Source of the DNA: an uncultured bacterium
Lineage (GTDB): Bacteria > Patescibacteriota > Minisyncoccia > Moranbacterales > GWC2-37-73
Length of the DNA: 64,000 nt
Reading direction: 5' to 3'
Assembly: GCA_903861715.1 (NCBI GenBank)
Contig: CAIOVI010000019.1
Coordinates: 5,936 to 69,935 of the forward strand
The notes below the pieces were generated by a model that was not told the DNA's origin, ran no database searches, and saw only the letters and a list, made by a program, of their open reading frames with translations. A program made the position numbers and the translations under genes. Below are positions 3,207 to 53,233 of this stretch, in pieces; the first letter of the stretch is position 1; each line of letters starts with the position of its first letter.

Positions 3207-3272
3207 ATTTTATTTTTATGTAGCCTTTATAGTTTTCAAAAGTCACCATTTACATGGTGGCTTTTTTGTGAG

Positions 3273-6200: not shown

Positions 6201-6536
6201 AACCATGACTACACTTTGTCCGCCATCAAAGGAATGCGAAATGAGTTGATCAATGTTGGGAAGCTGGCTCACGACATCTTCCATTGGGCGGGTGACAAGC
6301 TCTTGAACCTGGTCAGCTGTTGCCCCGGGGAAGCTGGTTGTGATGACAAAGGCCGGCGCCACGATTTCAGGATTGTAGGCCTTGGGAATCAAAATGAAAC
6401 TGCCAACTCCCCAAGCGATGATGAAAAGCATGGCTAAAATATTCAGCTCTTTATTTTTAACAAAAACCTGAGCCATTTTTCCGGCAAAGCCTAATTTTTT
6501 CTGAGAGTTGTTTTCTGCTGGGTTAATTTGATTCAT
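3273..6536 (-). CDS. RND family efflux transporter permease (AcrB/HAE1-like)
   Basis: 1087 aa with 12-TM topology, two large periplasmic loops and typical AcrB-like sequence blocks. Confidence 0.85.
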   Translation of the reverse strand: MNQINPAENNSQKKLGFAGKMAQVFVKNKELNILAMLFIIAWGVGSFILIPKAYNPEIVAPAFVITTSFPGATADQVQELVTRPMEDVVSQLPNIDQLISHSFDGGQSVVMVQFKVGTPVENAKISISQKLRDNLYQKPIGANDPSLVTMDPDDVPIISIALTSNKRSPQALRSLAFDLADQLKLVPGASKVSVVGGLTNNLQIELDSAKMSQYHLAISDIIGMLGATNGIYTTESLKNNGSAETLRISGNITSAQDAARIVLIPNQDKPLTLGDVATITFGPGEITNAVHFTEKNAASQEVAYVTLAKIKGANISSVTEKVREKLAEVQKQNKYDSVKFSVLRDDGETASEEISTLTKHLVLSIVIVTVILMAFLGLRNSLIVAISIPLTLLASFGIGLLAGQTVNRITLFALILALGLLVDDAIVIIENVHRTIKNNPDKKISDLIITAVDEVGMGVLMSTITILLAFIPMAFVSGMMGPYMSPIPFFVSVTLLVSLFISFTINPALTGIFASPHSEEKENIFVQIIHKVENSYAGLIGKLTTNKRQKNIVLASAALLLLLSMLLPIFRIVQFRMLPKANKNQFYIYLDMPNSISYAKTNQVASALEKSALNFPNITSVESFVATAPITDFNGLFKGSFMRAQENQATLKINLIPHTQRQQTSEQIALSLRETLNQEVLSDEPDAKITVVEDPPGPPVRSTFFLKIQGDDQQLLNATAQDLEKMATSIDGIVDLNTTITQRAFEKQYQVDIDKAGRLGIAPATVIQTLHTALSGLNVARFRNIINYPDRQAEQQFVILRMQPQDRTDANSLSNLTIKSATGQTVPISELLLEKPLAQQSEIASDNRQQVVYVSGEMGSRSVMYAIFDLFPKLFSYKLSDGTGHISAWSPMGLTYENSIGQKVDVRIDGEWKLTLEIFRDLGIAMGVALLMIYFVLVVQLRSLVVPLLIMATIPLGMIGVLVGFAFLGAIKGTFFNATSMIGVIALAGIVVKNAIIYLAYLDELKERGMELTQALMEAGRVRLLPILLTSLTAILGSLTIIADPVWEGLAWAIIFGLSVSTVLTLIIFPLLYQTFEGKKWEKKIKK

Positions 6537-7650
6537 AGGGAGTTGTTACTGAGCCATTTAAGAGATATTGTTGACCTTCGACTGCAATTTTTTGATTTGC
6601 GCTAAGACCTTCAGTGACCTCGACCAGGCCATTATTCTCAGTGCTAGTTTTCAGGGTTTGTTCTTTAGCAACATTGTTTTCATCCAAAACAAAAACGACT
6701 TGGTCTCCACCGCGAGAAATGATCGCCTTTCTAGGAATCGAAATTGCTTGTCCGTCTCTTGAAACCATAATTTGTCCGCGCAAAAAATCGCCAAGGTCAA
6801 TAGCGTTATTTTCATTATTGAGATGAATACGGACAAGAGTTTTGAAATTGGCAGCATCACTGCCAGCAGCAATCGCTGTGACAATTCCTGAAAGTGGCGC
6901 GCCATTTGAAGTTTGCAAATTTGCAACATTTCCAACTGCGATATTTTTTCCATTAGTGGCTGAAACATAAGTTTCAATTTCCAAGCTGCTGGGAGTGCTG
7001 AGGCTAACAAGCGGCATGGAAAAATTTACAAAGCCACCTTCGCGACTATACACAGTCGTAATGATCCCGGCAAAAGGGGCAACGAGCGTAAAATTATTTT
7101 TGCCAGCGCTGGCGATGCTGGCTGAGCCTTGAGCTGCAATCAACTGATCTTTGGCTCCTTGAATTTGCAAATCTCTGGCGCGCTCGGCGCTTTGCACCGC
7201 TTCATCTGCTGAATCAGAAGGACTGGCATCTCTGTTAGTCCTAGCTTCGTCAACCAATTGATTGTAATATTTTTTGCTGTCACTCAATGTTTTTTCAAAC
7301 GCCGAAACTCCAGCGCTGGCAGCTGCAACTTGAGCGTCAATTTGTTCATTGCGAATTATCGCCAAGACTTCTCCTTTTTTAACTGTCTCTCCTTCATGTT
7401 TCAAAATTTTGACAATTGTTCCGCTTACTAATGGGGAAACATCAGCACGACTAGCTCCTCGGACGAAACCGGAAACTTCAATAATGGTGTTTTTGTCAGT
7501 CTGCTGAGTGAGGATGGTTTTGACAATCGGATTATTCGGTTTAGCCGTTTGGTTATTTCTATTTTTTAACACCAAGGTTGCCGTGAGAACAACTGCAACA
7601 ATAATTCCAGCAAGGAGAAGATATTGTTGTTTTGAAAAATTTTTCTGCAT
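6523..7650 (-). CDS. RND efflux periplasmic adaptor subunit (HlyD/AcrA family)
   Basis: N-terminal TM anchor, a coiled-coil central region and a beta-barrel C-terminal part. It overlaps the start of the permease gene by 14 nt. Confidence 0.75.
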   Translation of the reverse strand: MQKNFSKQQYLLLAGIIVAVVLTATLVLKNRNNQTAKPNNPIVKTILTQQTDKNTIIEVSGFVRGASRADVSPLVSGTIVKILKHEGETVKKGEVLAIIRNEQIDAQVAAASAGVSAFEKTLSDSKKYYNQLVDEARTNRDASPSDSADEAVQSAERARDLQIQGAKDQLIAAQGSASIASAGKNNFTLVAPFAGIITTVYSREGGFVNFSMPLVSLSTPSSLEIETYVSATNGKNIAVGNVANLQTSNGAPLSGIVTAIAAGSDAANFKTLVRIHLNNENNAIDLGDFLRGQIMVSRDGQAISIPRKAIISRGGDQVVFVLDENNVAKEQTLKTSTENNGLVEVTEGLSANQKIAVEGQQYLLNGSVTTPYESN

Positions 7651-7707
7651 GTTTTTTGATTTAAAAATATTAATTATCCAATTAAAAAAGCCTTGCGGCT
7701 GCTACAT

Positions 7708-7737
7708 TTGACATAATACCCCAGGGGGGTATATACT
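7708..7737 (+). promoter_or_regulatory. promoter with imperfect palindrome ATACCCC-N3-GGGGTAT in the spacer (putative operator)
   Basis: ttgaca at 7708-7713, then ataataccccaggggggtat, then tatata/tatact at 7730-7737. It lies in the divergent region between the RND operon and the DUF2892/ferredoxin/trx genes. Confidence 0.4.
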
Positions 7738-7797
7738 GTCAAGGTAGGAAGAGAAAGAAAATAAAAATAAATTAATTAATTTTTTAGCAATAATCAT

Positions 7798-7989
7798 ATG
7801 AAAAATGAAAATGGTTTGGATCGTGTGCTTCGATTTATGGTGGCGATAATATTGGTTGCTTTGGGATTTTATGTTACGGGAATTCTAAGTGTGGTCGCAT
7901 ATATCTTAGTGATTGTTATGTTTGTAACAGCAGTTTCAGGTTTTTGTCCTTTGTATAAAGTTTTCGGAATTAACACTAATAAAAAATAA
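7798..7989 (+). CDS. small membrane protein, DUF2892 (YgaP-like TM domain)
   Basis: 63 aa with two TM helices. LRFMVAIILVALGFY resembles DUF2892. Confidence 0.45.
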   Translation: MKNENGLDRVLRFMVAIILVALGFYVTGILSVVAYILVIVMFVTAVSGFCPLYKVFGINTNKK

Positions 7990-8010
7990 TAAAAATATAA
8001 AATACAAAAT

Positions 8011-8196
8011 ATGAGCAAAGTTAAAGTAGATTCAGCCAAGTGTCCGCAAGATCATCCGTGCCCACTAGTTGGAGTTTGTCCGGCTGGGGCAATCAGTCAG
8101 AAAGGATTTTCCGCCCCAACAATCGACGAAGTAAAATGCATCGCTTGTGGTCGCTGCGTCATGACCTGTCCTTATCATTGTCTTTCTTTTGAATAG
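8011..8196 (+). CDS. small Cys-rich ferredoxin-like / metal-binding protein
   Basis: Eight cysteines in two clusters (CPQDHPCPLVGVCP and CIACGRCVMTCPYHC). Confidence 0.4.
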   Translation: MSKVKVDSAKCPQDHPCPLVGVCPAGAISQKGFSAPTIDEVKCIACGRCVMTCPYHCLSFE

Positions 8197-8410
8197 GTTG
8201 GCGAGGTTTTGTTTTAAATGCTATAGTATTTAGGTGAAAGAGGGATAATAGTTTTCAAAAAATTCACCCTGTTAAATAATTTTAAATTTTTACTAAAATT
8301 TAAAATTAAGATTTGATTAACTTAAAAACAGGATGAGTGTAATTAATAAAATAATACAAATAAGTTTATTTTTTCGGTTAGGAAAAATCAAATCTTATTT
8401 CACAGGATAA

Positions 8411-8734
8411 ATGAGTCAAGAAATGGAATTTACAGATCAAAATTTTGATCAAGAAGTTATCAAAGCAAACGTGCCAGTGTTGGTTGATTTTTGGGCGCCG
8501 TGGTGTGGGCCATGCCAAATGATGGGACCAATCATTAAAGAATTGGCTGAGCAAATGGGAGAGAAAGCCAAAGTTGGGAAACTTAATGTGGATGAAAATG
8601 GTTCTATTGCTTCGCAATATGGCATCATGTCAATTCCAGCGCTGAAAATTTTCAAAGGCGGCAAAGTTGTCAAAGAATACGTTGGCGTGCAAGCTCTCGA
8701 AAATTTAAAGAAAGCGTTGGAGGAGTTGGCGTAA
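8411..8734 (+). CDS. trxA: thioredoxin
   Basis: WCGPC active site with a full thioredoxin fold-length sequence. Confidence 0.9.
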   Translation: MSQEMEFTDQNFDQEVIKANVPVLVDFWAPWCGPCQMMGPIIKELAEQMGEKAKVGKLNVDENGSIASQYGIMSIPALKIFKGGKVVKEYVGVQALENLKKALEELA

Positions 8735-8804
8735 AACATAGAGCATGTAACATAAAACATGTAGCATTAGAAATGCAATATACATTTTTTTAAAAAGCCA
8801 CTTT

Positions 8805-8832
8805 GTAGAAGGTGGCTTTTTGTGGGGCGAAA
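8805..8832 (+). terminator. rho-independent terminator after trxA
   Basis: agccacc / ggtggct stem followed by a T-run. Confidence 0.6.
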
Positions 8833-8857
8833 AAGATGCTATATTTAAGCTACTTGA

Positions 8858-9862
8858 ATGGAAAATGAGAAAATCAGAAAAATAATTCCGTTGCTCATTT
8901 TACTGATTAGTTTAGTGCTGATTGGGTTGTTTTTGGTGGGCAGGAAAACAGCTTCTTTCGAAAATGTTAAGACTGACGTGGTAGTTGAGAAAAAAGCGGT
9001 GGGTATAGCTAAGGCAGTAGCGCTAGCTGAGGTAGCAGGCTCAGTTAAAATTCTTTTTACGGGTGATATTATGCTGGACCGCTATATTAGACAAATTAGC
9101 GAAAAAAGGGGTGGCGGTTTTATTTTTGCTGGCGTCCAAGACCTACTAGTTAAAAATGATTTGGTGGTTAGCAATCTAGAGGGGCCCATTACGGATAATC
9201 CCTCGGTCAGTGTAGGCAGCGAAATCGGCGCCCACGATAACTACATTTTCACTTTCGACCCAATTGTCGCCAGTGAGCTATGGAAAAACAATATCAAGCT
9301 TGTCAATCTTGGCAATAATCATATTTTGAATTTTGGAGCAGACGGGTTGGCGCAGACCAAAGAAAATTTGCGCAGCAATAAAGTTGATTTTTTTGGTGAT
9401 CCGACTGGCGAAAAAAGAATTGCCACTTGGAACAAGAACGGTTTGAAGCTGGCTTTTGTCAATTATAATCAGTTTGAAAAAGATGGCATTGCTAAAGCGC
9501 TTGATAATATCAGTGCTGCCAAGCAATTAAATGTTGACGAAATTATTTTGTATGCGCATTGGGGAACGGAATTTGCAGCTGAGGCTGATGTGAAGCTTAA
9601 AGATTTGGCTCACAGTTTTATTGATGGCGGCGTTGATTTGATCATTGGCAGTCATCCGCACGTAGTGCAAAACAAGGAACAATATCGCGGCAAAATGATT
9701 TATTATTCCCTTGGCAATTTTATTTTTGATCAGTATTTCAGCCCTGAGGCCCAAAAAGGGTTATCCGTTCAAGTTGAAATTGATTCAAGAGATAAAAATT
9801 TTATTTTTATAGAATTTCCAGTTGCTATAAAAGGCAGCGGGCAAACAGTGATAAACTACTGA
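8858..9862 (+). CDS. CapA family protein (poly-gamma-glutamate synthesis-type metallophosphoesterase)
   Basis: N-terminal TM anchor plus typical CapA blocks (GDIMLDRY, NLEGPIT, HWG, GSHPHVVQ). Confidence 0.7.
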   Translation: MENEKIRKIIPLLILLISLVLIGLFLVGRKTASFENVKTDVVVEKKAVGIAKAVALAEVAGSVKILFTGDIMLDRYIRQISEKRGGGFIFAGVQDLLVKNDLVVSNLEGPITDNPSVSVGSEIGAHDNYIFTFDPIVASELWKNNIKLVNLGNNHILNFGADGLAQTKENLRSNKVDFFGDPTGEKRIATWNKNGLKLAFVNYNQFEKDGIAKALDNISAAKQLNVDEIILYAHWGTEFAAEADVKLKDLAHSFIDGGVDLIIGSHPHVVQNKEQYRGKMIYYSLGNFIFDQYFSPEAQKGLSVQVEIDSRDKNFIFIEFPVAIKGSGQTVINY

Positions 9863-20599: not shown

Positions 20600-21283
20600 A
20601 TGCGGAAAATATTTTTAGACATCGAAACTTTGCCGGCAGGCGAGGATAAGTTTGAAATTTTGCAAAAACTATATGACAAGAAAGTCGCCAAGCAAGGAAG
20701 CGAAAAAAGTGAAGGCGAAACTTTTGAAGATTTCGTCGGGGCGACCAATTTTGATGGCGCTTTCGGGCGCATTTTGTGCATCGGCTTTGCCATTGACGAT
20801 GGCGCGCCAGAAACGCTTTATCACGAAAACGATGAGCGCCAAACGCTGAAACGCTTTTGGGAAATTGTCGATTCCATCAGTTCGCCTTCACGGGGTGGCT
20901 ATGGCGGTCCAGATTATGGTGTGCAATTTGTTGGACACAACGTGATGGATTTTGATTTGCGTTTCATTTATCAACGCTCGATTGTGCTGGATGTTAAACC
21001 TGCCTACGAACTGAATTTTGCTCGCTATCGAAATTATCCAATCTTTGACACGATGCGGGAATGGTCCAAATGGAGCAGTGGGATGATTGGTTTGGAAAAG
21101 TTGGCGTTGGCCTTGGGCGTGCCTTCGCCAAAAGATGAAGGCATCGACGGCAGCCAAGTCGCTGAGTTTTTCGCCAACGGAAAGGTGAACGATATTTTAG
21201 AATATTGCAAACGCGACGTGCAGACGACCAGAGATGTCTATCGCAAAATGACTTTCGACAAACCCGCCAATAAACTTTTTTAA
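20600..21283 (+). CDS. RNase H-like DEDDy 3'-5' exonuclease (PolB-exonuclease-related family)
   Basis: Exo I FLDIET, Exo II FVGHNVMDFDLRF and Exo III YCKRDVQTT motifs. Confidence 0.6.
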   Translation: MRKIFLDIETLPAGEDKFEILQKLYDKKVAKQGSEKSEGETFEDFVGATNFDGAFGRILCIGFAIDDGAPETLYHENDERQTLKRFWEIVDSISSPSRGGYGGPDYGVQFVGHNVMDFDLRFIYQRSIVLDVKPAYELNFARYRNYPIFDTMREWSKWSSGMIGLEKLALALGVPSPKDEGIDGSQVAEFFANGKVNDILEYCKRDVQTTRDVYRKMTFDKPANKLF

Positions 21284-21296
21284 GCGTTAATTTTTT

Positions 21297-21335
21297 ATGG
21301 AGGCTCAACCTCCATAATGGAGGTTGAGCCTCCAT
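21297..21335. repeat. GGAGG-hairpin palindromic repeat (copy 1): atggaggctcaacctccat a atggaggttgagcctccat
   Basis: Perfect 19-bp inverted arms. Each arm is itself a ggagg/cctcc mini-hairpin. The element is flanked by a T-run and an A-run. Confidence 0.7.
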
Positions 21336-21344
21336 AAAAACACT

Positions 21345-21896: not shown

Positions 21897-24800
21897 ATGG
21901 AACAAGGAATTTTCAGCAAGCAACAGCTCAAAGATGAACTCAGGCGAATGGTGGGAGCGACGGTATATTCGCGAGGGGTGAGTTATTATCGAGACGATTT
22001 GGTTGGGCAAATCACGTCGCAACTTTTGCAGGGAGGAAAAATAAAGCTCTCGGCTTTTGTGATGGGTTCTGATGAATATAAAACGACTGCAGTTTTTGAT
22101 TTTAGCAAAAATAGTTTCCAAAAATTCATTTGCAGTTGTCCCTATGATTGGGGAGATTGCAAGCACGCCGTGGCGTTGGCGCTCAAATTTTTGGATTTTT
22201 ATGCACAATTTCTGGAGGAAGAAAATATTGTTGAAAATGAAGGCGAAGATTTTGGAGGCAGTTTAGTTTTGTGGCTGAAAAAAATTGCACAAAACAAAAC
22301 ACAAAGCTGGGAAGATGCAGAATATTATGCGGATGAGGATGAGGAAATAGCTGAAGAATATGCGCCAAGAAGCAAAAGTAAAATCAAAATCAAAGATGCG
22401 GAAATTGTGACCTCAAAAAAACAAGAAAATAATGAAATTGCAGATTTGAAAGCTCGGCTCAAATCCATCGGCATTGATGCCGAAAATATTCCGGATTTTG
22501 TGTTGAAAGAACTTGAGAAAAAAGTCTCCGTTGGGAGTTTGCAGCTTGGCGTGCAAGCAGAATCGCTAGAAAAACCAAGGGTGGTGGAAAATCTCGGCGA
22601 GCGTTTTTTGCAAAAATATTGTTTGGTGCTGAAAACTGATTATCAATTCAAAATCGAATTACACGAGAAAAACAAGCCCAACGATAGTTATTGGATGGTT
22701 AATGCTGGCGAATTGTTGGGGCGTGAAAAAAATCAACTTACGGGAAAGCAGAAAGAATTATTGTCAGCCTTAAGTGATGTTAGTGCTTGGTATAATGATG
22801 ATGAGTCAAGTGACTATGGGAAAATTTTAAGCTTAGCGAAAGAAATAGGGGTTAGTATTTTTGCGAATAGCAAAGCTGCTAGCAGTCGGGTGACTTTCAG
22901 GGATGATGGATCCAAATTTAAAGCAAAATTATTTTTCAAAAAAGAATATGATTGGCAGGGCACAGAAAGAGTTGAGCAAGAAAAACTTTTGTTTGGTTTA
23001 GCTGGAGAATTTTTTTTGACCAAGCAAAATAGGATGTATTTGCGAGGGCAATATTTAATTGTGCTTGATAATTTTCAATTAGCAATAATTTCTTTGCCAG
23101 AAATTTTGGCTGGAGCTGTTGGGAAAATTATGAAAAGCATTAGTTATTATCAAAATTATTATTATCAGCCTAATGACAACGAGCTGCTGAATAGAGCTGA
23201 GACAATTTTGGAAGACACGGAAATAATTCGACTTAATGAATTTATCGAAAAAGTCAGGGAACTTTTTGAATTAGAAACTGATTTGTCTGCGAAATTTGAA
23301 ATTAAAGAATTTAAAAAGCTTGGACCTGCAATTATGGTCGACTATGACAATGCTAACCATTTTTTGCAATTGCGCGCCACGATGGATTATGGTTTTGCCA
23401 AGTTTGATGTGGCGCAAATAGTTTATAAATCAATGCGGGGTGGCAAACCAAGTTTTCAAAAAAGATATTTTTCCGGACGCGAAAAATATCACTTGGAAAT
23501 TGTGGGCGACAAAATCAATTATGCGAAAATGGCCTCCAAGGCTGAAATTGCCTTGTTTCGAAAATTTTCTCAAGAGGAGCAATTGGGTTTTTCGAAAACG
23601 GTGCATTGCGTGAAAAAAAGCGTCAAACAAATCGAAAAATTTCAAAGCGAAAATTGGACAAATGTGAAAGCCCTCGGTTACCCCTTGGAATATATTCATG
23701 ACAATTTTGATTTCGTGGAAGAAAACTTCAAAGTTGACTATGACGTTTCTTTTGACAAATCCAATGATTGGTTTGAATTTGATGTGGCTTGCTATTGTGG
23801 GGAAAATAACATCACCCTAGAAGATTTGCAAAAATATATTAAAGATAAACAACAATTTTTGAAATTAGCTGACGGTCGAATTTTAAAAATAACCAACCGT
23901 GCGGAATTGGAAAAATTCGTGCGGATGTTGGAAAGTTTTTATCAAAGAGAAGGCCAAAAATTTGAAGGCAAACTTTTTCACGCCCCAGAACTGGAAGATG
24001 TGCTAACAAGTTCACCGTATTATAGCGGGAAAATTGCCAAGAGTTTTAAGAATTTTATGGCTGAAGCGCAGAGTGGTAAGCCAGTAGAGAAAGTGGCAAT
24101 TCCTGCCAAAATTAAAAAACCTTTGCGCGACTATCAGAAAGATGGCATCAACTGGTTTTATTTTTTGCGCAAATATCGCTTTGGTGGAATTTTGGCTGAT
24201 GACATGGGGTTGGGCAAAACGTTGCAGGCCCTGAGTTTGATTGAAATGAACAAAATCAAAAAGAAACCTTCAATTGTGATTTGTCCGAAAACATTGCTTT
24301 TCAATTGGGAAGATGAAGCCATCAAATTTTTTCCAGCGATGAAAGTTTTGGTCATCAGTGGCGCACCGACCGAAAGACAAGCTCAACTTAAAACTTTGAA
24401 AAAAGTTGACTTGGTGATTACTTCCTATCCTTCAGTCAAAAAAGATCAACTTGAATACGATAAACTGAAATTCAATTATTGCTTTTTGGATGAGGCGCAA
24501 TATATCAAAAATCACAAAACCCAGAACGCTAAAGCCGTTAGAAAAATAAACGCCGACTATCGTTTGGCGCTCACGGGCACACCTTTGGAAAATTCTGTTT
24601 CAGAAATTTGGTCGCTGTTTGAATTTTTGATGCCAGGATTTTTGGGCACTCAGCACGCTTTTGCAGAAAAATTTGAAAGACCCATCATGAAAGAGGCAGA
24701 TAGCACAGCCTTGGAAGCTTTGCGCAAGAAAACAGCCTGCTTTGTGTTGCGTCGCACGAAGGAAAAAGTGCTGAAAGAATTGCCAGCGAAAATTCAACAA

Positions 24801-25511
24801 GTTTCGCATTGCCAACTTGGAAGCGAACAAAATATTTTGTATCAAGAAATTTTGAAGAATGTGAAAAATGATTTAGCCGAGGTGGTGGCGGAAAAAGGTT
24901 TTGCCAAATCGCAGATTCACATTTTGGCAGGGCTGACCAAGTTGCGTCAAGTTTGCAATCATCCAGTCTTGCTCCTGAAAGACAAAAATCACAAAAAATA
25001 TGCTTCCGCTAAATTGGAATTATTCTTGGAATTGGTTGGCGAAATTGTTTCGGCCGGCAGAAAAGTTTTGGTCTTCAGTCAATTCACGCAGATGCTGGAT
25101 ATTTTGGCCAAAGAATTAGAAGAGCAGGAAATTGGCTATCATTATCTGTCTGGCAAAACCAATAACCGCAAAGAATTGGTGCAAGATTTCAACAGCAATG
25201 AAAAAATCCCGGTCTTTTTAATAAGCTTAAAGGCTGGTGGCACGGGGCTTAATCTGACTTCGGCTGACAATGTGATCATCTTTGATCCTTGGTGGAATCC
25301 TAGCGTCGAAAATCAAGCCATTGATCGGGCTCATCGTATTGGTCAGAAAAATTCTGTCAATGTCTATCGCCTGATTGTCAAAGGCACGATTGAGGAAAAA
25401 ATCGTGGCCTTGCAAAACAAGAAAAAATCACTTTTCGACAATATGATCGGCGAAAGCAATGACCTTTTCAGGAAACTCACCTGGTCAGACGTGAAAGAAC
25501 TGTTCCAATAG
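21897..25511 (+). CDS. SNF2-family helicase with N-terminal SWIM zinc finger
   Basis: SWIM CxC...CxH motif (CSCPYDWGDCKHAVA). SNF2 ATPase motifs (LADDMGLGKT, DEAQYIKN, TGTPLEN) and helicase C motifs (QAIDRAHRIGQ). Confidence 0.85.
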   Translation: MEQGIFSKQQLKDELRRMVGATVYSRGVSYYRDDLVGQITSQLLQGGKIKLSAFVMGSDEYKTTAVFDFSKNSFQKFICSCPYDWGDCKHAVALALKFLDFYAQFLEEENIVENEGEDFGGSLVLWLKKIAQNKTQSWEDAEYYADEDEEIAEEYAPRSKSKIKIKDAEIVTSKKQENNEIADLKARLKSIGIDAENIPDFVLKELEKKVSVGSLQLGVQAESLEKPRVVENLGERFLQKYCLVLKTDYQFKIELHEKNKPNDSYWMVNAGELLGREKNQLTGKQKELLSALSDVSAWYNDDESSDYGKILSLAKEIGVSIFANSKAASSRVTFRDDGSKFKAKLFFKKEYDWQGTERVEQEKLLFGLAGEFFLTKQNRMYLRGQYLIVLDNFQLAIISLPEILAGAVGKIMKSISYYQNYYYQPNDNELLNRAETILEDTEIIRLNEFIEKVRELFELETDLSAKFEIKEFKKLGPAIMVDYDNANHFLQLRATMDYGFAKFDVAQIVYKSMRGGKPSFQKRYFSGREKYHLEIVGDKINYAKMASKAEIALFRKFSQEEQLGFSKTVHCVKKSVKQIEKFQSENWTNVKALGYPLEYIHDNFDFVEENFKVDYDVSFDKSNDWFEFDVACYCGENNITLEDLQKYIKDKQQFLKLADGRILKITNRAELEKFVRMLESFYQREGQKFEGKLFHAPELEDVLTSSPYYSGKIAKSFKNFMAEAQSGKPVEKVAIPAKIKKPLRDYQKDGINWFYFLRKYRFGGILADDMGLGKTLQALSLIEMNKIKKKPSIVICPKTLLFNWEDEAIKFFPAMKVLVISGAPTERQAQLKTLKKVDLVITSYPSVKKDQLEYDKLKFNYCFLDEAQYIKNHKTQNAKAVRKINADYRLALTGTPLENSVSEIWSLFEFLMPGFLGTQHAFAEKFERPIMKEADSTALEALRKKTACFVLRRTKEKVLKELPAKIQQVSHCQLGSEQNILYQEILKNVKNDLAEVVAEKGFAKSQIHILAGLTKLRQVCNHPVLLLKDKNHKKYASAKLELFLELVGEIVSAGRKVLVFSQFTQMLDILAKELEEQEIGYHYLSGKTNNRKELVQDFNSNEKIPVFLISLKAGGTGLNLTSADNVIIFDPWWNPSVENQAIDRAHRIGQKNSVNVYRLIVKGTIEEKIVALQNKKKSLFDNMIGESNDLFRKLTWSDVKELFQ

Positions 25512-25702
25512 TAAAATTGATATAGGAAAATTATTCTTTTCAAGCAGCAAAAATGGGAGCAGAGTGGGGATGCGGGTTAATTATGGTTGCTGCGTAGCAG
25601 GCTACGTAACAAACGTAGCAAAATTAAAATAACCCTTATTAGGTAACAGCGTGGTGTGATAAATTACCACATTATCAAAAGTAAAGCGCATTTTTCAAAT
25701 CT

Positions 25703-25742
25703 GACATTTACTTTGATACTCGAAAGTATCAAAGTAAATGTC
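25703..25742. promoter_or_regulatory. perfect 40-bp palindrome (18-bp arms around cgaa) 30 nt upstream of the SEC-C gene start
   Basis: gacatttactttgatact cgaa agtatcaaagtaaatgtc. A second, imperfect copy lies at 26373-26411. Confidence 0.6.
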
Positions 25743-25771
25743 ACCAAATTTAAATTCATAAAAGGAGCACC

Positions 25772-26314
25772 ATGAGCAACAAATTTAACAATCTGAAAGA
25801 AGAAGATTTGATCAAATTTTTGGATGAGGGAAGTTTAAAAGAGGATGAAATTGCTGATTTTATGCAGGCCATGCAGAACAGGGGGCTGGCAGGTTCGATT
25901 ATGCAGTTGGATGACCCAAATTCCAGAGAGGGAAAATCAACTATTGAATATGTGAGCTATCATGAGAAAATTCCGCGGGAATATTTTTTGGAAATGCCAG
26001 AAGGTGAAATCATCAAAGCGCAGAAAACTTTGCTTTCGCAGGATTCCCTGATTGAAGATAAGAAAGTGGCATTGCTGGTTCTGGCTCATGCGAAAAAAGA
26101 GGTGGCACGTGAAGCCTTGCAAAAATATTCTGAAAATCCAAATGAAAGTCTGCGAACTTGGGCAACTTTGGCCTTGCAAGAATGTGAAAGTTTTTTGGAG
26201 AAAAATGAAAATGAAAAACCAAAAATTCTTTTTCAAAAAATCAAAAGCACCAAGCGAAATGACCCTTGCCCATGTGGGTCTGGCAAGAAATTTAAAAAAT
26301 GTTGCTTGGAATAG
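25772..26314 (+). CDS. SEC-C motif protein (helical N-domain, C-terminal CPCGSGKKFKKCC metal-binding tail)
   Basis: Canonical SEC-C motif at the C-terminus. It shares an ALxECExFL helical block with the protein at 40777-41418. Confidence 0.6.
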   Translation: MSNKFNNLKEEDLIKFLDEGSLKEDEIADFMQAMQNRGLAGSIMQLDDPNSREGKSTIEYVSYHEKIPREYFLEMPEGEIIKAQKTLLSQDSLIEDKKVALLVLAHAKKEVAREALQKYSENPNESLRTWATLALQECESFLEKNENEKPKILFQKIKSTKRNDPCPCGSGKKFKKCCLE

Positions 26315-26372
26315 CCTTCAATTTTAATTATTCAGGTTAACAGCTGATCTAGCTTTTCTTTTTTCAAAAGTG

Positions 26373-26411
26373 GCAAACACTTTGATACTCGAAAGTATCA
26401 AAGCAAATGTC
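26373..26411. repeat. second copy of the tttgatactcgaaagtatcaaa palindrome (imperfect outer arms)
   Basis: Core of 24 bp identical to the copy at 25703-25742, followed by the same aaatgtcaccaaa. Confidence 0.6.
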
Positions 26412-26546
26412 ACCAAACTGAGGAAGCTTTTTGGAAAATTATTGTGTCTGAATTCACAGGTTAATATTTTTGGATTATTTTGAAATTGTGTGGTATAATA
26501 TCGATATCAGTTTTTCAACTTTTAAAGGGCTTGGCTTAAAACAAAA

Positions 26547-26969
26547 ATGAAAATTCTTGGCATTATTTTGGCCTCTCTTGCGTTTGCCGGCGTGATCATC
26601 TCACCGTTTTTTTGGTTGGGTTTTTTGCGGGCGAAAAGCGTGGGGCGATATTTGGTTGTGAGTTCAATTTTAACCTTACTATTTTTCTGGTTTTCTTTGA
26701 CATGGCTGTATGATTTTTTATTAAAGCCTGTAAATAGTTATGACGTCCTTTATTATTTTGATAACATATCTTTAGGATATTCATTTATGGTATTTTTTTT
26801 CATAATTATTTCTCCTTTGATTTTCATTAAAATTGTCCAACAAAAATTCACGCTGAAAAGTTTTGCGGGCGGGCTGCTTCTTTCTTTGGTCCTTTTCATT
26901 TCGATTTTCTTGTTTTGGGCGCTGGTGCTGTTGCCACAGGCTTTCAATCAATTGCACAATTATTTTTAG
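26547..26969 (+). CDS. small polytopic membrane protein
   Basis: 140 aa with four hydrophobic helices. Confidence 0.4.
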   Translation: MKILGIILASLAFAGVIISPFFWLGFLRAKSVGRYLVVSSILTLLFFWFSLTWLYDFLLKPVNSYDVLYYFDNISLGYSFMVFFFIIISPLIFIKIVQQKFTLKSFAGGLLLSLVLFISIFLFWALVLLPQAFNQLHNYF

Positions 26970-27060
26970 TTTCTGATCTTAAGCTAACTGCACCTAAAGA
27001 GGCTAAGCCTCTGAGTAATAATTATTTTTTGTTTTCAAAAAGAGGGGGAGCGCATTAGAT

Positions 27061-30000
27061 ATGCGAAAGAAAATTTTTCCAGGACTTCACTTGGGAATTG
27101 CAATGCTCGTTTGGATTTTTTGGGGCGTCAAAGTGGCGCAGGCTTTGGTTTTGGTGACCAATGATGTCATTGTGCCAACAACTTGGACAAAGGCCAATAG
27201 CCCTTATGTCATTCAAAATTTCATTGAAATCAAAGCACCGCTGGTCATTGAAGCTGGCACCGTGATCAAATTTCAAAATTTTGAAAGTGATGGCGGACCG
27301 ACAGTGCCCGGCCTGGGCATTCAAAGTGCTTTCACGGCTGTGGGCAGTCCTTTGGAAAAGATTGTGTTCACAAGTGCCTGTGACTCTAATTATGGTGGGG
27401 ACACGCAGCAAGATTGTTCCTCCAAAATGCCTAGTCGCAGCGGAAGTTGGGATAGCCTCAGGGTTTGGGTCGGATTTGGTCAGCCAGTTTTGATTGAATA
27501 TGTCAAAATTTTGAATGCTAGCAATGGCGTAACTTATGTAAATTCTCAGTGCAATTTTTCCTATCGGGATTTGACGGTCAGAAACACCGAAATCAGTTTT
27601 GCTTCTTCTGCTGGAATAGCGCTTCAATGCGTTCAGCCAATTTTGGACAGCTTGAAGCTAACGTTTAATTACGACGGGATTTATGTTAGTAACTCGGTTT
27701 ATAATTACACGCCGAAAATTAGAAATAGCATCCTTAGCGACAACCGGAATGCTGGCGTAGAGGCATATCGGTACACTTACTTTGATGCCAGATATAATTA
27801 TTGGGGAGATGCTAGTGGGCCATATTATGGTTATGATAATCAAGGCAACACAGAGGGCCCCAATAAAAGCGGTTCGGGCAATCGTATTGTTGGAACCAGT
27901 GTGCTGTTTCGACCTTGGGACAAAAGCGATCCAACCATTCCGAAAAAACCAGTGATTTTCATTCCCGGCATTGGCGCTTCCATCAACCCAGATTTGATGA
28001 TTGGTGGAGTTTTCGCTGACAATTGGACGATGTTTGATCACACCTATGACGGCATCCTCAAAGCTTTCAAGGTCATGGGTTATCAAGAAGGCAAGAATTT
28101 TTTCATTGCCTATTATGACTGGCGTCAAGGCAACGGCGAGTCAGCGGAAAAATATCTCAAGCCCCTCATCAAAAAAGCGCTGACACTGAATGATGTGACG
28201 CAGGTGAACCTCGTGACTCATTCCATGGGATCGTTGGTGGCGCGCAGCTATGTGCAAAGTTCCAGCTATGCCAACAACGTGGACAATTTGATTATGATTG
28301 CGCCACCCAATCGAGGTTCTTCAGATGTTTATACTTTGTGGGAAGGCGGTTATATTCCAAAAAATTGGAGTAGTAGAACAGCCATGGTTTATTATCTTGC
28401 ATATTTGCAGTTAATAAATTTAGAAACTAGTAGATATAATATTATTCATAAATATATTCCTTCCCTCAAAGATTTGCTGCCAGTTTATGATTTTCTTTTT
28501 CCAACTGGCAAGGCAGACGAACTCAAAAATTTTTTTGACATGCAAGAGCGGAATGATTTTTTGCTGGATTTGAATAAGTCGGTTGCTGGCTTGAAAACCA
28601 AAACTGATTTGAGCATCATTTTGGGCGACAAACAGCCGACTGTGAGCAAAATTCCATTTGTTGATTCTGATCAAGCGGGGCTTTGGTTGGATGGCAAGCC
28701 GAGTCCGCTCGATCCAGTGCGAGATGATGCCAGCGGTGATGGCGAAGTGCTGAGATTATCTGGTGACATTCCCAGCAATTTTTGGGCAGTGCTGAACTAT
28801 GACCACAGTGCAATTGTCAGCAAATCGGAGAAAATTGTGGCTGATCTGCTGGGCGAAACTTTGACTGACACTTTCGATTCACCAGAAATTAAAGATGAAA
28901 TTATTTTTTGGACCGATGCACCAGGAGATTTGAAAGTATCTGACCCAGATGGAGCCTCGGCGCCCAAGGATAACAATGAAGACACTGATGTCCGCTATGC
29001 GCAGGAGGAAGGCAAGGATGGTTTCAAAATCGTGTCAGTGCCGAATGTGAAAAATGGGCAATATCACGTTGAGCTTCAAGGTCATGAAAATGGGAACTAT
29101 CATTTAGCAACTGAATATGTCGATCACAAAAACGAAAATCAGCAAGAGGCAGTTCAAGTCGTTCAGACTCAGAAAGATCAAACGCAAAATTTTGTGGTGA
29201 CAGTTGATCCGAAAAATCCAGTCACGCCAATTCAAGATGTTCAATTGCAAGATGAAATTGCGCCAACCATCACATTGCAAGCTCCCGAGGATGGCAAGGC
29301 ATATGCCAATGATCAAATTTTGCCAATTGTTTTTTCAGTTTCGGATAATGTTTCCAAAGAAGAAGATCTTGTGGTTGAAAAATATCTGGATGATGACAGT
29401 CAGCTGTTTGAGGCGGACTCGATTGATTTTGCAAAGCTTGCGCTGGGCCAGCATGTTTTTTGGATCAATGTTTATGATGAGGCAGGGAACTACAACTCCG
29501 TCGGAGTGTCGTTTGAAGTCAAGCAAGCTGAAACTCCAAGCAATCCGCCGGCAGACAATGGCAGTGGCAATCAAGACCAGACTGGTGGAAGTGGCGGCGC
29601 TGGCGGCGGAAATCAAAACAATGGAAATACTGATCCAGATTCAGGTTCTAATTCAAATGGTGGCTCTAATTCTAATTCTAATTCTAATTCTAATTCAGGC
29701 AGCCAGCCAGTGACGGAAGCTGTAGTTGCGCCAACCCAGTCAGCGGCGGCTCAGGAAAATTCTGGTTCAAATCGAAAAAAAACAGCCAGCCACAAAAAGA
29801 AAAAACAAATCAAAACAATTTCAACAACAACGAAATTTATTGAAGGTGGTGGCGTGACAAAATCCAGTGAGCCAATAAAAGTGCTTTTCAGTTCAAATTT
29901 TAATTTGTCGAAAAATTCTGAAGAGCAGCAGAATTTGTTTTATCAAGTCCTGGAAGAAAATCTCAAAGGGCAGTTGCTAGCTATGGAGGAAAATCCAATT

Positions 30001-33861: not shown

Positions 33862-35946
33862 ATGTCTCAAGAAAATGACATTTCCAAATTAAGAAACATT
33901 GGCATCATCGCTCACATTGATGGCGGAAAAACCACCACCACGGAGCGTATTTTGTTTTACACTGGGATCACTCACAAAATCGGAGAGGTGCATGAAGGCG
34001 CTGCCACGATGGACTGGATGGAACAAGAACAAGAACGCGGCATCACCATCACTTCTGCGGCCACTAAATGCAGTTGGAAAGGTCATCCAATCAACATCAT
34101 CGACACTCCTGGTCACGTGGACTTCACAGTGGAAGTTGAACGCTCATTGCGCGTGCTGGATGGCGCCGTGGTTATTTTCGATGGCAAAGAAGGCGTGGAA
34201 CCGCAATCTGAAACAGTGTGGCGACAAGCTGACAAATATCACGTGCCGCGTATTTGCTTTGTCAACAAAATTGACAAAGAAGGCGCTGATTTTGATTTTG
34301 TGTTGGGCTCAATTTGGAATCGCTTGACTCCTAATGCTTTGGCGCTGCAAATTCCAATTGGCGAACGCAGTGAATTTTCTGGCGTGGTTGATTTGATGAA
34401 AATGAAAGCCTACACTTTTGAAGGCGAGATGGGCATCAAAGTGGTGGAAAATGAAATTCCAGCTGAACTCGTGGAAAAAGCCAAACAGTGGCGAGAAAAA
34501 ATGATTGAAAAAATTTCTGAAACTGATGATGCTTTGACTGAAAAATATTTGAGTGGCGAAGAAATTTCAACGGAAGAACTGAAAGCTGCTCTCCGTCGAG
34601 GCGTGCTGGCTGCCAAACTTGTGCCAGTTTTCACGGGAACTGCCCTTCGCAACAAAGGCGTGCAATTGGTGCTGGACGCTGTGGTTGACTACTTGCCATC
34701 ACCTTTGGACGTGCCTCCAGTGATTGGAACTAATCCAAAAAATGGCGAAGAAGTTACACGAGCCGCTGATGACAACGAACCTTTTTCAGCCTTGGCTTTC
34801 AAAGTTGCCACCGATCCTTTCGTGGGACAACTAACCTTCTTTCGGGTTTATTCGGGAACTCTCAAGGCTGGTTCATATGTGGTTAATGCCACTAATGGAC
34901 AAAAAGAAAGAATTGGACGAATTTTGCAAATGCATGCCAATCATCGCGAAGAAATTGATGAAATTCGAGCTGGCGGAATCGGCGCCTTGGTGGGACTCAA
35001 AAGCACGACCACTGGTGACACGCTTTGCGATGAACAAAAGCAAATCATTTTGGAAAATATTGTTTTCCCAGAACCTGTGATTGACATTGCGGTGGAACCG
35101 AAGACTAAAGCTGATCAAGAAAAAATGGGACTTGCTCTTCGCAAATTGGCTGGAGAAGATCCAACCTTGCGATTGCGCACCGATGAGGAAAGTGGGCAAA
35201 CCATTATTTCCGGAATGGGCGAGCTTCATCTTGACATCATTATTGATCGCATGAAACGAGAATTTGGAGTGGAAGCTAACATTGGTCAACCGCAAGTGGC
35301 TTATCGCGAAACCATCAAAAGCGAAGCGCAAGCTGAAGGAAAATACATCAAACAGTCTGGAGGACGTGGACAATATGGACATTGCTGGCTCAAAGTGCGT
35401 CCGCAAGAAGAAAAAGGCAAGGGCTATGAATTCTTCGATGAAATTAAAGGTGGAGTTATTCCTCAAGAATACATCACTCCGATTAATAGGGGAGCCAAAG
35501 AAGCTTTGGAAAATGGTGTGTTGGCTGGTTATCCAATGGTGGACGTGATTGTGACCCTTTATGATGGATCTTTCCATGAAGTCGACTCCTCTGAAGCCGC
35601 TTTCAAAATCGCTGGTTCAATGGCCGTGCAAGAAGCGGTCAAACGCGCCAACCCAATCATCTTGGAACCTATTATGAAAGTGGTGGTGACTGTGCCGGAA
35701 CAATTCATGGGTGACATCGTGGGCGACATTAATGCTCGTCGTGGGATGATCAAGGAAATTAATGATCGCGGAGAGGGAAATGCTCGCGTGAAAGAAATTG
35801 AATCTGAAGTTCCCTTGGCCAATATGTTTGGATATGCAACTCAAATGCGATCCATGACTCAAGGACGTGCTTCATATTCCATGGAATTTGCGCACTACAA
35901 CGAAGTGCCAAAGAACGTGGCCGAGACGATTATCGCTAAAAAATAG
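33862..35946 (+). CDS. fusA: elongation factor G
   Basis: [10 protein letters not shown]1 motif, DTPGHVDF, and full five-domain EF-G length. Confidence 0.95.
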
Positions 35947-36058: not shown

Positions 36059-36092
36059 GGAGGCTCAACCTCCATATGGAGGTTGAGCCTCC
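36059..36092. repeat. GGAGG-hairpin palindromic repeat (copy 2)
   Basis: ggaggctcaacctcc atat ggaggttgagcctcc. Confidence 0.7.
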
Positions 36093-40776: not shown

Positions 40777-41418
40777 ATGACAAAAAAGTTAAAAAAAGAA
40801 GCTGAAATTAGTTTGGCAAAGCTTGAGGATAAAGAACTCTTGATAAAAGAGCTTAAAAAATTGGCACATGCTGGCACCAAGGAGGCGGTGGCAAAAATTG
40901 AAAAATATCTTGAAACAGAAAAAGATGCTGAAAGACGAGCTTACGGCGAAATGGCTCTGGAGGAATGTGAATTTTTTCTGTATGAACCAAGGAATGAAAA
41001 AGAGGAAAAGGAGCTGATGCTCTGTGAATTGATCAAGCGTCGCGAGCGTAGAGTTGATGATTTGACGATCAAAATTGACGGCGCTGAAATGAGATTGGAA
41101 AAATTAGCACTAGAAAAGAAGGTGCATAAAAAAGTTTTGGAGTCCAACAAAAGCAAGCAAGAAGATTGGCAGTATTTTTGGTTGGAAGATTTTGTGGGGA
41201 TGGAAAAAAATGAATTGCAAAAAATTGAAGATGAACTTGCCTATGAAGAAGCTTGGATTGAGCAGGCGAAGAAAATGATCACAACCGAAAGATATAAAAA
41301 AATTCCGTTTCGTTTTCTTGGACATTTCGACTTTGGTTTTGATGAAGATTTTCCAGAAGATGATGAGGATGCTTGCGATTGCGGTTGCTGCGAGAGTGAG
41401 GAAGAATTTAAATTTTAA
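40777..41418 (+). CDS. hypothetical coiled-coil protein with acidic Cys-rich C-terminus (paralogous block shared with the SEC-C protein at 25772)
   Basis: The MALEECEFFLYE block matches LALQECESFLEK in the SEC-C protein at 25772. The C-terminus is DEDACDCGCCESEEE. Confidence 0.5.
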   Translation: MTKKLKKEAEISLAKLEDKELLIKELKKLAHAGTKEAVAKIEKYLETEKDAERRAYGEMALEECEFFLYEPRNEKEEKELMLCELIKRRERRVDDLTIKIDGAEMRLEKLALEKKVHKKVLESNKSKQEDWQYFWLEDFVGMEKNELQKIEDELAYEEAWIEQAKKMITTERYKKIPFRFLGHFDFGFDEDFPEDDEDACDCGCCESEEEFKF

Positions 41419-41451: not shown

Positions 41452-41485
41452 GAGGCTCAACCTCCATAATGGAGGTTGAGCCTCC
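41452..41485. repeat. GGAGG-hairpin palindromic repeat (copy 5)
   Basis: gaggctcaacctcc ataat ggaggttgagcctcc. Confidence 0.7.
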
Positions 41486-46492: not shown

Positions 46493-46591
46493 TACGAATG
46501 CTGATACGAATTATGCCCGAATTATATACGAATATAATTTTAGGACAATTCGGATGTAATTAGGATATAATTTGGATTAAAATTAGGATAT
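46493..46591 (+). repeat. r-protein intergenic repeat (type 1)
   Basis: atacgaatgctgatacgaattatgcccgaattatatacgaatataatt ... aattaggatataatttggattaaaattaggatat ATG. Confidence 0.8.
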
Positions 46592-47221
46592 ATGGCTACA
46601 ATTGCCCTGCACAATCTAGAAGGAAAGAAATTGGAAGATTTGAACATTTCAGATGCGGTTTTCGCAGTGAAATCAAACGATGAACTTTTGCACCAAGTTT
46701 TCATGGTGATTGCTGGCAATCAAAGATTTTCAATTGCCAACACAAAAGACAAAAGTGAAGTTGCTGGAACTGGCAAAAAACCTTTCAAGCAAAAAGGAAC
46801 TGGCAGCGCCCGTCAAGGACAGAAAAGAAATCCAGTGATGAAAGGTGGTGGAATTGCTTTTGGACCAACCAGCGATCGAAATTTCAAACGCGATGTGAAC
46901 AAAAAAATGAAGCAAAAGGCGGTGCGGATTGCGCTTTCTGAAAAACTTCGCAGCGGAACTTTGATTGCGGTTGATGCTCTTGAGCTCAAGGACGCCAAAA
47001 CCAAAGCTTTTGCGCAAGTTATCAAAAACCTCAAACTGACTGGAAAGACTTTGGTGTCATTTGCTGATGGAGAAAAGAAATTGTCAATTGCTAGTCGCAA
47101 TCTTCCCAAGATTGCCAATATTGAAACCAAGGATTTGAATGTATATGATTTGCTCAACAACAAAAATGTGCTCTTGAGCAAAGCCTCGATTGCATTTTTG
47201 GAAGAAAAATTTAGCAAGTAA
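46592..47221 (+). CDS. rplD: 50S ribosomal protein L4
   Basis: KQKGTGSARQGQ ... GGGIAFGP uL4 blocks. Confidence 0.9.
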   Translation: MATIALHNLEGKKLEDLNISDAVFAVKSNDELLHQVFMVIAGNQRFSIANTKDKSEVAGTGKKPFKQKGTGSARQGQKRNPVMKGGGIAFGPTSDRNFKRDVNKKMKQKAVRIALSEKLRSGTLIAVDALELKDAKTKAFAQVIKNLKLTGKTLVSFADGEKKLSIASRNLPKIANIETKDLNVYDLLNNKNVLLSKASIAFLEEKFSK

Positions 47222-47323
47222 ATCGCGAATCAACTCGAATTTAAATCCGAATAATCGCGAATAAAAAAGTATTAGAGAAAATTAGTGAAATAATTAGTGT
47301 TGATTAGTGATTTATTTAAACAT
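47222..47323 (+). repeat. r-protein intergenic repeat (type 2: gtattagagaaaattagtgaaataattagtgttgattagtgatttat)
   Basis: About 50 nt are shared with the S3-L16 spacer at 50541-50631. Confidence 0.7.
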
Positions 47324-47707
47324 ATGGCAGTAATAGAAGAGAAAAAAGAGAATATTGCAAAAAAGGAAGTAGCGGCCAAAAAGGCAGTGAAAAAGGTTGT
47401 TCCTCGAGCTGCTGAAAATGCCGACATTGCTTACAAAGTTTTGGTTGAACCTTGGATCACTGAAAAATCCCATGCAGGCTTGGCTGAAAACAAATATGTT
47501 TTCAGAATCACCCAGGATGCTACCAAGGCGCAAGTGAAAAAAGCAATCGAAGGTTTTTATCAAGTGAGTGTCCAAAAGGTTGCAGTTTTGAATTTTATTC
47601 CAAAGAAAAGAGCCTATGGCAGATTCGAAGGCGCAAAATCAGCAATCAAGAAAGCCGTGGTGACTTTGAAAGAAGGAGATAAGATTGAATTGTTCCAAGG
47701 AGCCTAG
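47324..47707 (+). CDS. rplW: 50S ribosomal protein L23 (with Lys/Ala-rich N-terminal extension)
   Basis: YKVLVEPWITEKSHAGLAENKYVFRI uL23 core. The start is at the MAVIEEKK ATG. Confidence 0.85.
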   Translation: MAVIEEKKENIAKKEVAAKKAVKKVVPRAAENADIAYKVLVEPWITEKSHAGLAENKYVFRITQDATKAQVKKAIEGFYQVSVQKVAVLNFIPKKRAYGRFEGAKSAIKKAVVTLKEGDKIELFQGA

Positions 47708-53213: not shown

Positions 53214-53233
53214 GTAAAATTGATTAAATAAAT

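Follow-up and report, generated by a model that had tools for sequence, protein, structure and literature searches.

Palindromes bracketing a SEC-C gene in a Patescibacteria genome as candidate operators of a TrpR/YerC-like regulator encoded elsewhere

Two copies of a long palindrome were analyzed in a 64-kb stretch of DNA from an uncultured member of the Patescibacteria (hereafter the window, meaning the whole 64,000 nucleotides), where they stand on either side of a small gene encoding a protein with a SEC-C zinc motif. On balance, and with confidence a little better than even, the palindromes are regarded here as operators of a TrpR/YerC-like regulator encoded outside the window, the SEC-C gene being a bracketed target. 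The genomes of Patescibacteria are very small and encode few regulators, and gene control in these organisms is almost unexplored. A conserved regulator with a recognisable 22-base pair (bp) core site would therefore offer a directly testable regulon in organisms that are mostly uncultured, while dispersal of that site by a small repeat unit may illustrate a route by which such genomes reorganize their regulation. There is also a lesson for annotation, as a gene located between two palindromes need not encode the protein that binds them, an assumption that is tempting but wrong in this case. The interest of the system is moderate, and would be greater if the bracketing or the cassette behavior considered below proved functional. 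A literature search returned neither a description of the palindromes nor a link of YerC/TrpR-like proteins to Patescibacteria.

Copy 1 (25702..25743, unstranded) has the structure TGACATTTAC TTTGATACT cgaa AGTATCAAA GTAAATGTCA. A previous sequence-only reading of this DNA had described a palindrome of 18+18 bp, gacatttactttgatact-cgaa-agtatcaaagtaaatgtc, at 25703-25742. It is indeed present, and the perfect dyad extends by one more pair to 19+4+19, giving TGACATTTACTTTGATACT-cgaa-AGTATCAAAGTAAATGTCA over 25702-25743. Its placement in front of the SEC-C gene was also correct, the gap to the ATG being 28 nucleotides (nt) from 25743, or 29 nt from 25742, in place of the 30 nt reported. Copy 2 (26370..26412, unstranded), GTGGCAAACAC TTTGATACT cgaa AGTATCAAA GCAAATGTCAC, has a perfect core and imperfect outer arms, with pairing at 14/19 positions. 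That the second copy has the same core and 3' flank was confirmed: 25 nt are identical (25710-25734 = 26379-26403), with the flank aaatgtcaccaaa, and its extent is here corrected to 26370-26412. It begins 55 nt past the stop codon of the gene, which ends at 26314, and not 80 nt after it as was supposed. The two copies form a 58-nt direct repeat of 88% identity. The pair is real and non-random, the 22-mer core occurring 2 times in the window compared with 0.00 expected from 100 shuffles, and no further copies of the core were found in the 64 kb even when 3 mismatches were allowed. It can be observed that copy 2 is a chimera, in which the left arm is of the TGGCAAACAC type, seen as a perfect palindrome at loci L031, L032, and L072, and the right arm is of the other type. 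In strain L002, a T at 26404 restores one pair of copy 2. A 42-mer identical to copy 1 is present in Kiruna_bin-03023 (L067), with one change in JBAXHR (L073).

Both copies are embedded in larger repeat units. The extended unit of copy 1 (25661..25747, + strand) possesses an asymmetric 5' flank (...attatcaaaagtaaagcgcATTTTTCAAATC) and a 3' CCAA, and displays 87% identity over 87 nt to the element located between priA and a NUDIX gene in JBAXHR (L073), a locus that is otherwise non-homologous; it is also matched at L052, L056, and L040 over 67-74 nt. The extended unit of copy 2 (26354..26421, + strand) aligns over 68 nt, at 84% identity, with the palindrome 5' of the TrpR-like gene at L040, including the 3' flank CACnAAACTGA. 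As a separate observation, TTATCAAAAGTAAAG at 25672-25686, 54 nt 5' of the right arm GTATCAAAGTAAATG, resembles an additional degenerate half-site; it belongs to the conserved 5' flank, L073 has it as well, and L071 carries an additional partial site 47 nt away from a full one.

The palindrome is a member of a family distributed across Patescibacteria. A scan for the 18 specified core bases, TTTGATACT-N4-AGTATCAAA, in one genome per GTDB species returned 62 loci, 35 of which are in Patescibacteria-type metagenome-assembled genomes (MAGs), including Doudnabacteria JBBREH and JBBRWU, Moraniibacteriota JBAXHR, Kiruna_bin-03293, LJ_bin-4100, and JAQTSG, with 3-7 exact-core sites per MAG. The remainder, approximately 27, arise from unrelated phyla, display no conservation past the specified bases and look like chance hairpins. 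Twenty-six of the Patescibacteria sites extend to a long palindrome. One form is TGACAnnnAC-TTTGATACT-N4-AGTATCAAA-GTnnnTGTCA with a ttcg/cgaa loop, in which the three variable positions co-vary, and which has a variant TGGCAAACAC...GTGTTTGCCA; another has an ACGT loop with AAAACAAAAC or CATTTC arms. Copies in the closest relatives share asymmetric flanks (5' ...aaactcATTTTTCAAATC, palindrome, CCAA 3'), and different arm sequences occur within one genome, each still self-complementary. Family members are located 15-250 nt past the stops of the DNA-metabolism genes topA (L072, L032, L057), priA (L073), and uvrC (L062), and 30 of 41 sites lie no more than 150 nt from a stop codon. The site after topA is kept in three genomes and that after the serine hydroxymethyltransferase (SHMT) gene in two, representing orthologous positions in close relatives. 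The palindrome is therefore not tied to the SEC-C gene alone, since it is carried by many unrelated loci in related genomes, the very outcome that the sequence-only reading had named as contrary to its proposal.

A number of other origins were considered for the family and rejected. A viral scan yielded 7 matches, none with the extended palindrome, which speaks against a phage or mobile-element origin. As a DNA uptake sequence, the half-site ACTTTGATACT would be over-represented, which is not the case: 5 matches with at most 1 mismatch were found in 64 kb, 4 of the 5 inside the two palindromes. A LexA/SOS box was dismissed as no LexA-type gene is linked to the sites. Two core matches at L022 (1564-1585 and 3178-3199) were set aside; they lie within coding sequence around tandem paralogues of a phosphoenolpyruvate (PEP)-utilising enzyme, with identical 3' flanks, and are probably outside the element family.

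The identity of the reader is suggested by genetic linkage. When all open reading frames near the sites were clustered to seek recurrent neighbors, the sole gene family adjoining sites across distinct lineages was that of a TrpR/YerC-like protein of 175-180 amino acids (aa), present in 5 genomes (L040, L048, L015, L039, L071). The protein matches Pfam Trp_repressor (PF01371) at 40-57 bits compared with a cut-off of 27. Its AlphaFold2 model, with a predicted local distance difference test (pLDDT) score of 80, has as its top folds YerC-like proteins (3kor, 3frw, 3g1c) and E. coli TrpR (1tro, 1trr), with a probability of 1.00 and including operator complexes, while a conserved C-terminal extension of approximately 70 residues (W..KKR.P.Y.WPE) has no structural match. 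The family comprises 252 clusters at E<=1e-10, whose members are named 'YerC/YecD family TrpR-related protein' and come from Moranbacteria, Parcubacteria, and Patescibacteria. Loci were then sampled independently, by protein only, through a metagenome scan (13 loci) and two contig look-ups (3 loci), from which two duplicates and two loci too incomplete to score were removed, leaving 12. In 12/12 an ATACT-N4-AGTAT palindrome is located 4-48 nt past the stop of the TrpR-like gene. In 10/10 loci with enough upstream sequence, a palindrome is also located 9-53 nt before the start, 9 of them passing the scripted threshold and L086 being weaker. No such palindromes were found elsewhere in the remaining 49 kb of these loci. 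The triplets before ATACT vary by lineage (TTTG, TTCA, TCTA, TACA, TATC) and at times between the two copies of one locus. The layout of a single small gene bracketed by two copies, noted previously for the window, thus recurs elsewhere. Synteny around the regulator is kept, in the order Ser hydrolase, TrpR-like gene, NUDIX/pyrH, so that the protein appears to be a resident regulator rather than a transposon.

In six regulator loci (L015, L039, L040, L048, L084, and L089) a -10-like hexamer is located 24-27 nt after the core, and TAAAAG is found at the same distance after the core in the window, a match that is suggestive only. A sigma-70 promoter within the element was rejected, as several hand-fitted -35/-10 pairs were unconvincing and a promoter scan of the + strand returned nothing at this position. 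Relative to neighboring genes, the asymmetric flanks are not consistently oriented. In L085, L093, and L095 the downstream copy of the regulator faces a convergent gene, indicating that this copy is not simply the operator of the next gene. At L100:660-700, in a strain whose TrpR-like protein shares 95% identity with its L040 counterpart, no palindrome follows the gene and aagaaTGTCAtt is left, a clean absence due to either hairpin deletion or assembly collapse.

The symmetry of the element was analyzed in a set of 38 distinct sites, all chosen for at least 15/19 pairs except window copy 2 (14/19), which was included by hand. In the 38 sites, 92.5% of cells were Watson-Crick paired compared with 73.7% in shuffles, a percentage that is inflated by the selection, and 13/19 pairs change on both sides, a co-variation that is not. 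A near-invariant dyad, T-N3-ATACT-N4-AGTAT-N3-A, is apparent, in which little or no variation is seen at T11, A15-T19, the mirror positions, and A32. G-U cells, approximately 14 against 54 other mismatches, are no commoner than expected by chance. The loop is inverted between the orthologous sites L038:2178-2219 (cgaa) and L046:7487-7528 (ttcg), the flanks of which are identical, and also when the copies on the two sides of the regulator gene are compared in L086, L088, L095, and L097; the loops of other lineages are ACGT, TGGT, or CGAT. Such freedom of loop orientation argues against an RNA tetraloop and fits a symmetric reader of DNA, and a tetraloop (UUCG on the minus strand) was rejected for this reason and for the differences among lineages. 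No terminator-like sites were found by a scan of 25300-27200. An A+T-rich stem leading into CCAAAT, without a U-tract, takes the place of the G+C-rich stem and U-tract of an intrinsic terminator. A known Rfam RNA family was likewise rejected, the best scores on the two palindromes being 18-23 bits compared with gathering scores of 41-245 bits. Quasi-palindromes tend to be 'corrected' by template switching, which may reinforce arm symmetry here. Judged from these sequence patterns, the symmetry, the free flipping of the loop and the lack of a U-tract fit a symmetric reader of double-stranded DNA and not a selected RNA hairpin. It is very probable that the site is read by a dimeric DNA-binding protein, as had been proposed.

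A mechanism may be outlined on this basis. A dimer of the long-form TrpR/YerC-family helix-turn-helix (HTH) protein would read the near-invariant dyad, while the outer arms could vary provided that they stay symmetric. The regulator's own gene is held between two palindromes in all lineages examined, with a few more copies in other intergenic regions. The SEC-C gene occupies the same bracket, with one site before the start and one after the stop, and because this bracket is of the regulator type the gene is most likely a tightly repressed target. Since no more than 28 nt separate copy 1 from the ATG, this copy must either coincide with part of the promoter or belong to the 5' leader. The downstream site may serve as a second operator, by looping or as a roadblock, and copy 2 would correspond to the 3' member of the bracket. 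The operator would be carried, in this lineage, on a repeat unit of 60-90 nt, copies of which are placed around different cargo genes. What the sequences establish is the palindrome family with its symmetry, its association with the TrpR-like gene and the geometry of the bracket; we infer that the protein binds the palindrome and represses transcription, and that this genome encodes it.

Comparison with known repressors provides both similarities and differences. Shared with TrpR and HisR (YerC) are the TrpR fold of the linked protein, a dyad-symmetric site (approximately 20 bp would be expected, and the perfect dyad here is 19+4+19), and the location of a site before the regulator's own gene. 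The known motifs are GTACT-N8-AGTAC for TrpR and TTTA-N6-TAAA for HisR (PMC9413887). ATACT is similar to the GTACT of TrpR, and cACTTTG to the cacTTTA of HisR/YerC (PMC9413887), whereas the known half-site sequence and spacing are not reproduced by the invariant core, in which N4 replaces the N8 of TrpR and the N6 of HisR. Further differences are the C-terminal extension, the length of the palindromes, the second copy that always follows the regulator gene, and the dispersed sites with shared flanks. For TrpR-family operators it is unusual that the site is symmetric over 42 bp, that it brackets genes and that it is dispersed on a small repeat unit. To our knowledge, the host lineage is largely without Trp/His biosynthesis, so the effector and regulon must differ from those of TrpR/HisR. 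The bracket also resembles the dual operators of lac, gal, and deo, as an operator is present twice at a separation of 0.6-1.3 kb, at the promoter and again within or past the gene, whereas looping is something that we purely infer for the window bracket.

Several observations weigh against an operator function. No TrpR-like open reading frame is present in the 64-kb window, and the TrpR-like gene of this genome was not located via look-ups of P0093, P0079, P0048, P0053, and P0045. Several sites lie between convergent genes or right after stops (priA, uvrC, topA; L085, L093, L095), where no promoter is expected, and the core of copy 2 ends approximately 90 nt 5' of the extended -10 box of the next gene, with no overlap with that promoter. 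The palindromes, approximately 42 bp in length and often perfect, are far longer than a TrpR-type operator needs, and one genome holds different arm sequences. The asymmetric flanks common to copies, up to 45 nt, represent the behavior of a repeat element, unlike that of independently evolved operators. Finally, strain L100 is without the downstream copy.

The bracketed gene (25772..26314, + strand) encodes a protein of 180 aa that combines a helical core of HEAT-like type with a SEC-C zinc motif at its C-terminus, CPCGSGKKFKKCC. SEC-C (PF02810) is the sole significant Pfam match (E 6e-11, 42.4 bits compared with a cut-off of 20.4), the CxC...C(C/H) zinc motif of that family is present, and HEAT_2 is matched weakly (E 0.012). 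In the AlphaFold2 model (pLDDT 67) residues 77-142 form a confident helical core; no PDB fold matched the model at E<0.001, the best partial matches being helical-repeat proteins. Neither Pfam, the model nor the fold search revealed a DNA-binding domain or fold. YecA-like NCBIfam models were matched weakly, all below the cut-off, as was PADLOC PDC-S12. The protein resembles other SEC-C motif proteins (the SecA C-terminal tail, YecA, YchJ) in its C-terminal zinc motif, but differs from YecA and YchJ in its HEAT-like N-terminal part, which is without the UPF0149 (YecA) and YchJ domains, the NCBIfam matches being far below cut-off. Full-length relatives number five only in a large protein collection. 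The contigs of orthologues at 79% identity (L004-L011) and of relatives at 42-43% (L012-L014) place the gene in other contexts, and no such palindromes were found on contigs L004-L014. In the L010 region 3214-9399 the gene is still 3' of the orthologous SNF2 helicase, with RhuM and MazG genes between them and no palindrome; this RhuM/MazG-like insertion points to a variable, possibly defense-related region. The SEC-C orthologue in L010 is truncated to 136 aa and has no SEC-C motif. A second bracketed cargo was found in JBAXHR (Moraniibacteriota), where at L052:3953-5310 a YhcG/DUF1016 PDDEXK nuclease gene is bracketed by the two subtypes of the window in the same order, the imperfect copy-2 subtype likewise being 3' of the gene. 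This nuclease corresponds to PADLOC PDC-S02 (E 9e-143) and its gene adjoins that of a type-III-restriction-like helicase; no homologue of the L052 proteins was found in the window. Both the SEC-C and YhcG brackets may lie in defense-type variable regions.

Several other explanations were weighed. The element might be a structural palindromic repeat, the hairpin of which marks a transcript end, insulates or stabilises messenger RNA, and which spreads in the manner of repetitive extragenic palindromic (REP) sequences or miniature inverted-repeat transposable elements (MITEs), its link to the TrpR-like gene being incidental or similar to that of REP-associated tyrosine transposases (RAYTs). We consider this unlikely. 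As a single strand, copy 1 has a strong hairpin energy of -25.4 kcal/mol (z = -6.9), most sites are close to a stop codon and several lie between convergent genes, asymmetric flanks of up to 87 nt are common to copies, arms that differ between copies in one genome stay self-complementary, and a second palindrome family occurs at gene 3' ends in the window. However, a hairpin role alone would not need a 10-bp centre that is invariant across class-level lineages, and a terminator at the sites before gene starts would block the gene. The missing U-tract, the empty terminator scan, G-U pairs that are not enriched among mismatches, and the free flipping of the loop argue in the same direction. As with REP/REPIN and RAYT, a single-copy gene has on either side a palindrome that is also scattered extragenically, often behind genes. 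The gene enclosed here, however, codes for an HTH protein without an HUH/Y1 transposase domain, the palindrome has no REP head of the GTAG type, and its core remains conserved between class-level lineages. Genes found between two copies are TrpR-like, SEC-C, or YhcG, the TrpR-like model matches TrpR folds only, and the copy number, 2 in 64 kb and 3-7 exact-core sites per MAG, is low compared with the tens to hundreds of REP sequences. Of the traits of a MITE, a repeat unit with shared flanks was seen, with no clear target-site duplication and one strain (L100) without the downstream copy. It is improbable that some other symmetric factor, such as a nucleoid, segregation, or global regulator, binds the palindromes, with the TrpR-like gene as its best-conserved target. 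Linkage denotes co-location and not binding, 3-7 long palindromes per genome resembles parS-like counts, and sites adjoin the DNA-metabolism genes topA, priA, and uvrC and an SNF2 helicase gene. Against this, no second protein family recurs beside the sites, autoregulation is typical of the TrpR/HisR family, the half-sites resemble those of that family, and we know of no similarity to parS, matS, or NBS consensus sequences.

The remaining explanations concern the bracket itself. The TrpR-like protein and the 42-bp palindromes could constitute a phylum-wide gene-bracketing system, in which a unit of 60-90 nt is copied to both sides of single genes that are thereby silenced or insulated and possibly exchanged. 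The proposed cargo would be the regulator's own gene and defense-type SEC-C/YecA-like and YhcG nuclease genes. Such a system, which we regard as fairly improbable, would be analogous to REP/RAYT or to cassettes, but with a TrpR fold and no recognisable recombinase. A role of the palindromes as recombination sites, marking the limits of single-gene cassettes that can be exchanged, is quite improbable. In its favor, two non-homologous loci carry the two subtypes in the same order, around the SEC-C gene here and around the YhcG/PDC-S02 nuclease gene in JBAXHR (L052), both brackets adjoin large helicase genes of the kind found in variable, defense-type regions, the SEC-C gene has differing contexts among relatives, and arms are chimeric in window copy 2 and in the upstream copy of L040. 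Nevertheless, there are two cargo examples only, neither a recombinase nor an integrase gene lies next to the palindromes, attC and Xer/dif sites differ from them in the 4-bp centre and in sequence, and around the TrpR-like gene the bracket is old, kept in synteny and not mobile. Neither motif of the integron attC core sites (RYYYAAC ... GTTRRRY) was found in the 58-nt repeat, and no integrase was found among the neighbors. Autoregulation by the SEC-C protein through binding to the palindromes, as the sequence-only reading had suggested, is scarcely credible. The position of the palindromes around the gene and the zinc-binding motif are all that favor it, whereas the protein has no DNA-binding domain or fold, its orthologues and relatives at 79% and 42-43% identity are without the palindrome, and the palindrome is present at many loci without a SEC-C gene, so that the comparative data already contradict it.

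The SEC-C protein had further been linked to a protein of 213 aa (40777..41418, + strand), which is outside the palindrome system. An ALxECExFL block common to both was verified by BLASTP (47 aa, 40% identity, E 2e-6). The shared block of approximately 49 residues, LAHaG..eA...le.Y...d..R..a.mALeECe.F., overlaps the weak HEAT_2 match in the SEC-C protein, and its profile-profile probability is 81% for the single sequence and 88.5% between family alignments. Cys clusters are present at both C-termini as described, but no alignment exists between them and they are not homologous. The notion of a paralogous family of metal-binding proteins linked to repeats is therefore mostly wrong, as the shared part is one HEAT-like block and the repeat after the 213-aa gene belongs to another family. 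The 213-aa protein is a member of its own conserved Moranbacteria/Patescibacteria family of 45 clusters, none with a SEC-C domain; it is 100% identical to P0162, which places the same species in NCBI.

Judging from sample and MAG names (the BUCK21-1 ENA samples and the Kiruna, LJ, AM, and Ja1 bins), the DNA would come from a dataset of stratified freshwater lakes, and its closest relatives bear the name Moraniibacteriota. The neighbors of the SEC-C gene encode an SNF2 helicase, a membrane protein, and a lipase-like protein. The SNF2/SWIM helicase gene on the 5' side (21897-25511) encodes 1204 aa with an N-terminal SWIM-like zinc finger, and matches DpdE/ZorD-type models via the helicase core. 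After it, an intergenic segment at 25550-25602 is kept in L010 and L011 (83% over 54 nt), and a small hairpin, GCTACGTaacaaACGTAGC, at 25601-25619 overlaps this segment by two bases; hairpins like '(A/G)CGTAAC' are found near elements in L004, L031, and L072. On the 3' side, an extended -10 box, TGgTATAAT (26491..26499, + strand), was read by eye as the promoter of the next gene, which encodes the 140-aa membrane protein (26547-26969). The promoter scanner demands a -35 box, hence this box was unlisted.

Other repeats are also present in the window. A second palindrome family, GGAGGCTCAACCTCCAT|ATGGAGGTTGAGCCTCC, occurs at 21292-21340, 36059-36092, and 41452-41484, with up to 49 bp perfect, each copy being just past a gene (20600-21283, fusA at 33862-35946, and 40777-41418, respectively). 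A related motif, ggaggtcgagcctcc...ggaggctcgacctcc, adjoins the element in L057 of JBAXHR. A repeat of approximately 100 nt, tacgaatgttgatacgaattacatccgaattatat..acgaatataatttacggacaattcggatataattaggatataattcgaat, with several TATAAT-like boxes, is found in at least 9 copies between the genes of the ribosomal-protein cluster over 46504-53985, for example at 46504-46555, 48659-48710, 51370, 52166, and 53948, and looks like a reiterated promoter or regulatory cassette.

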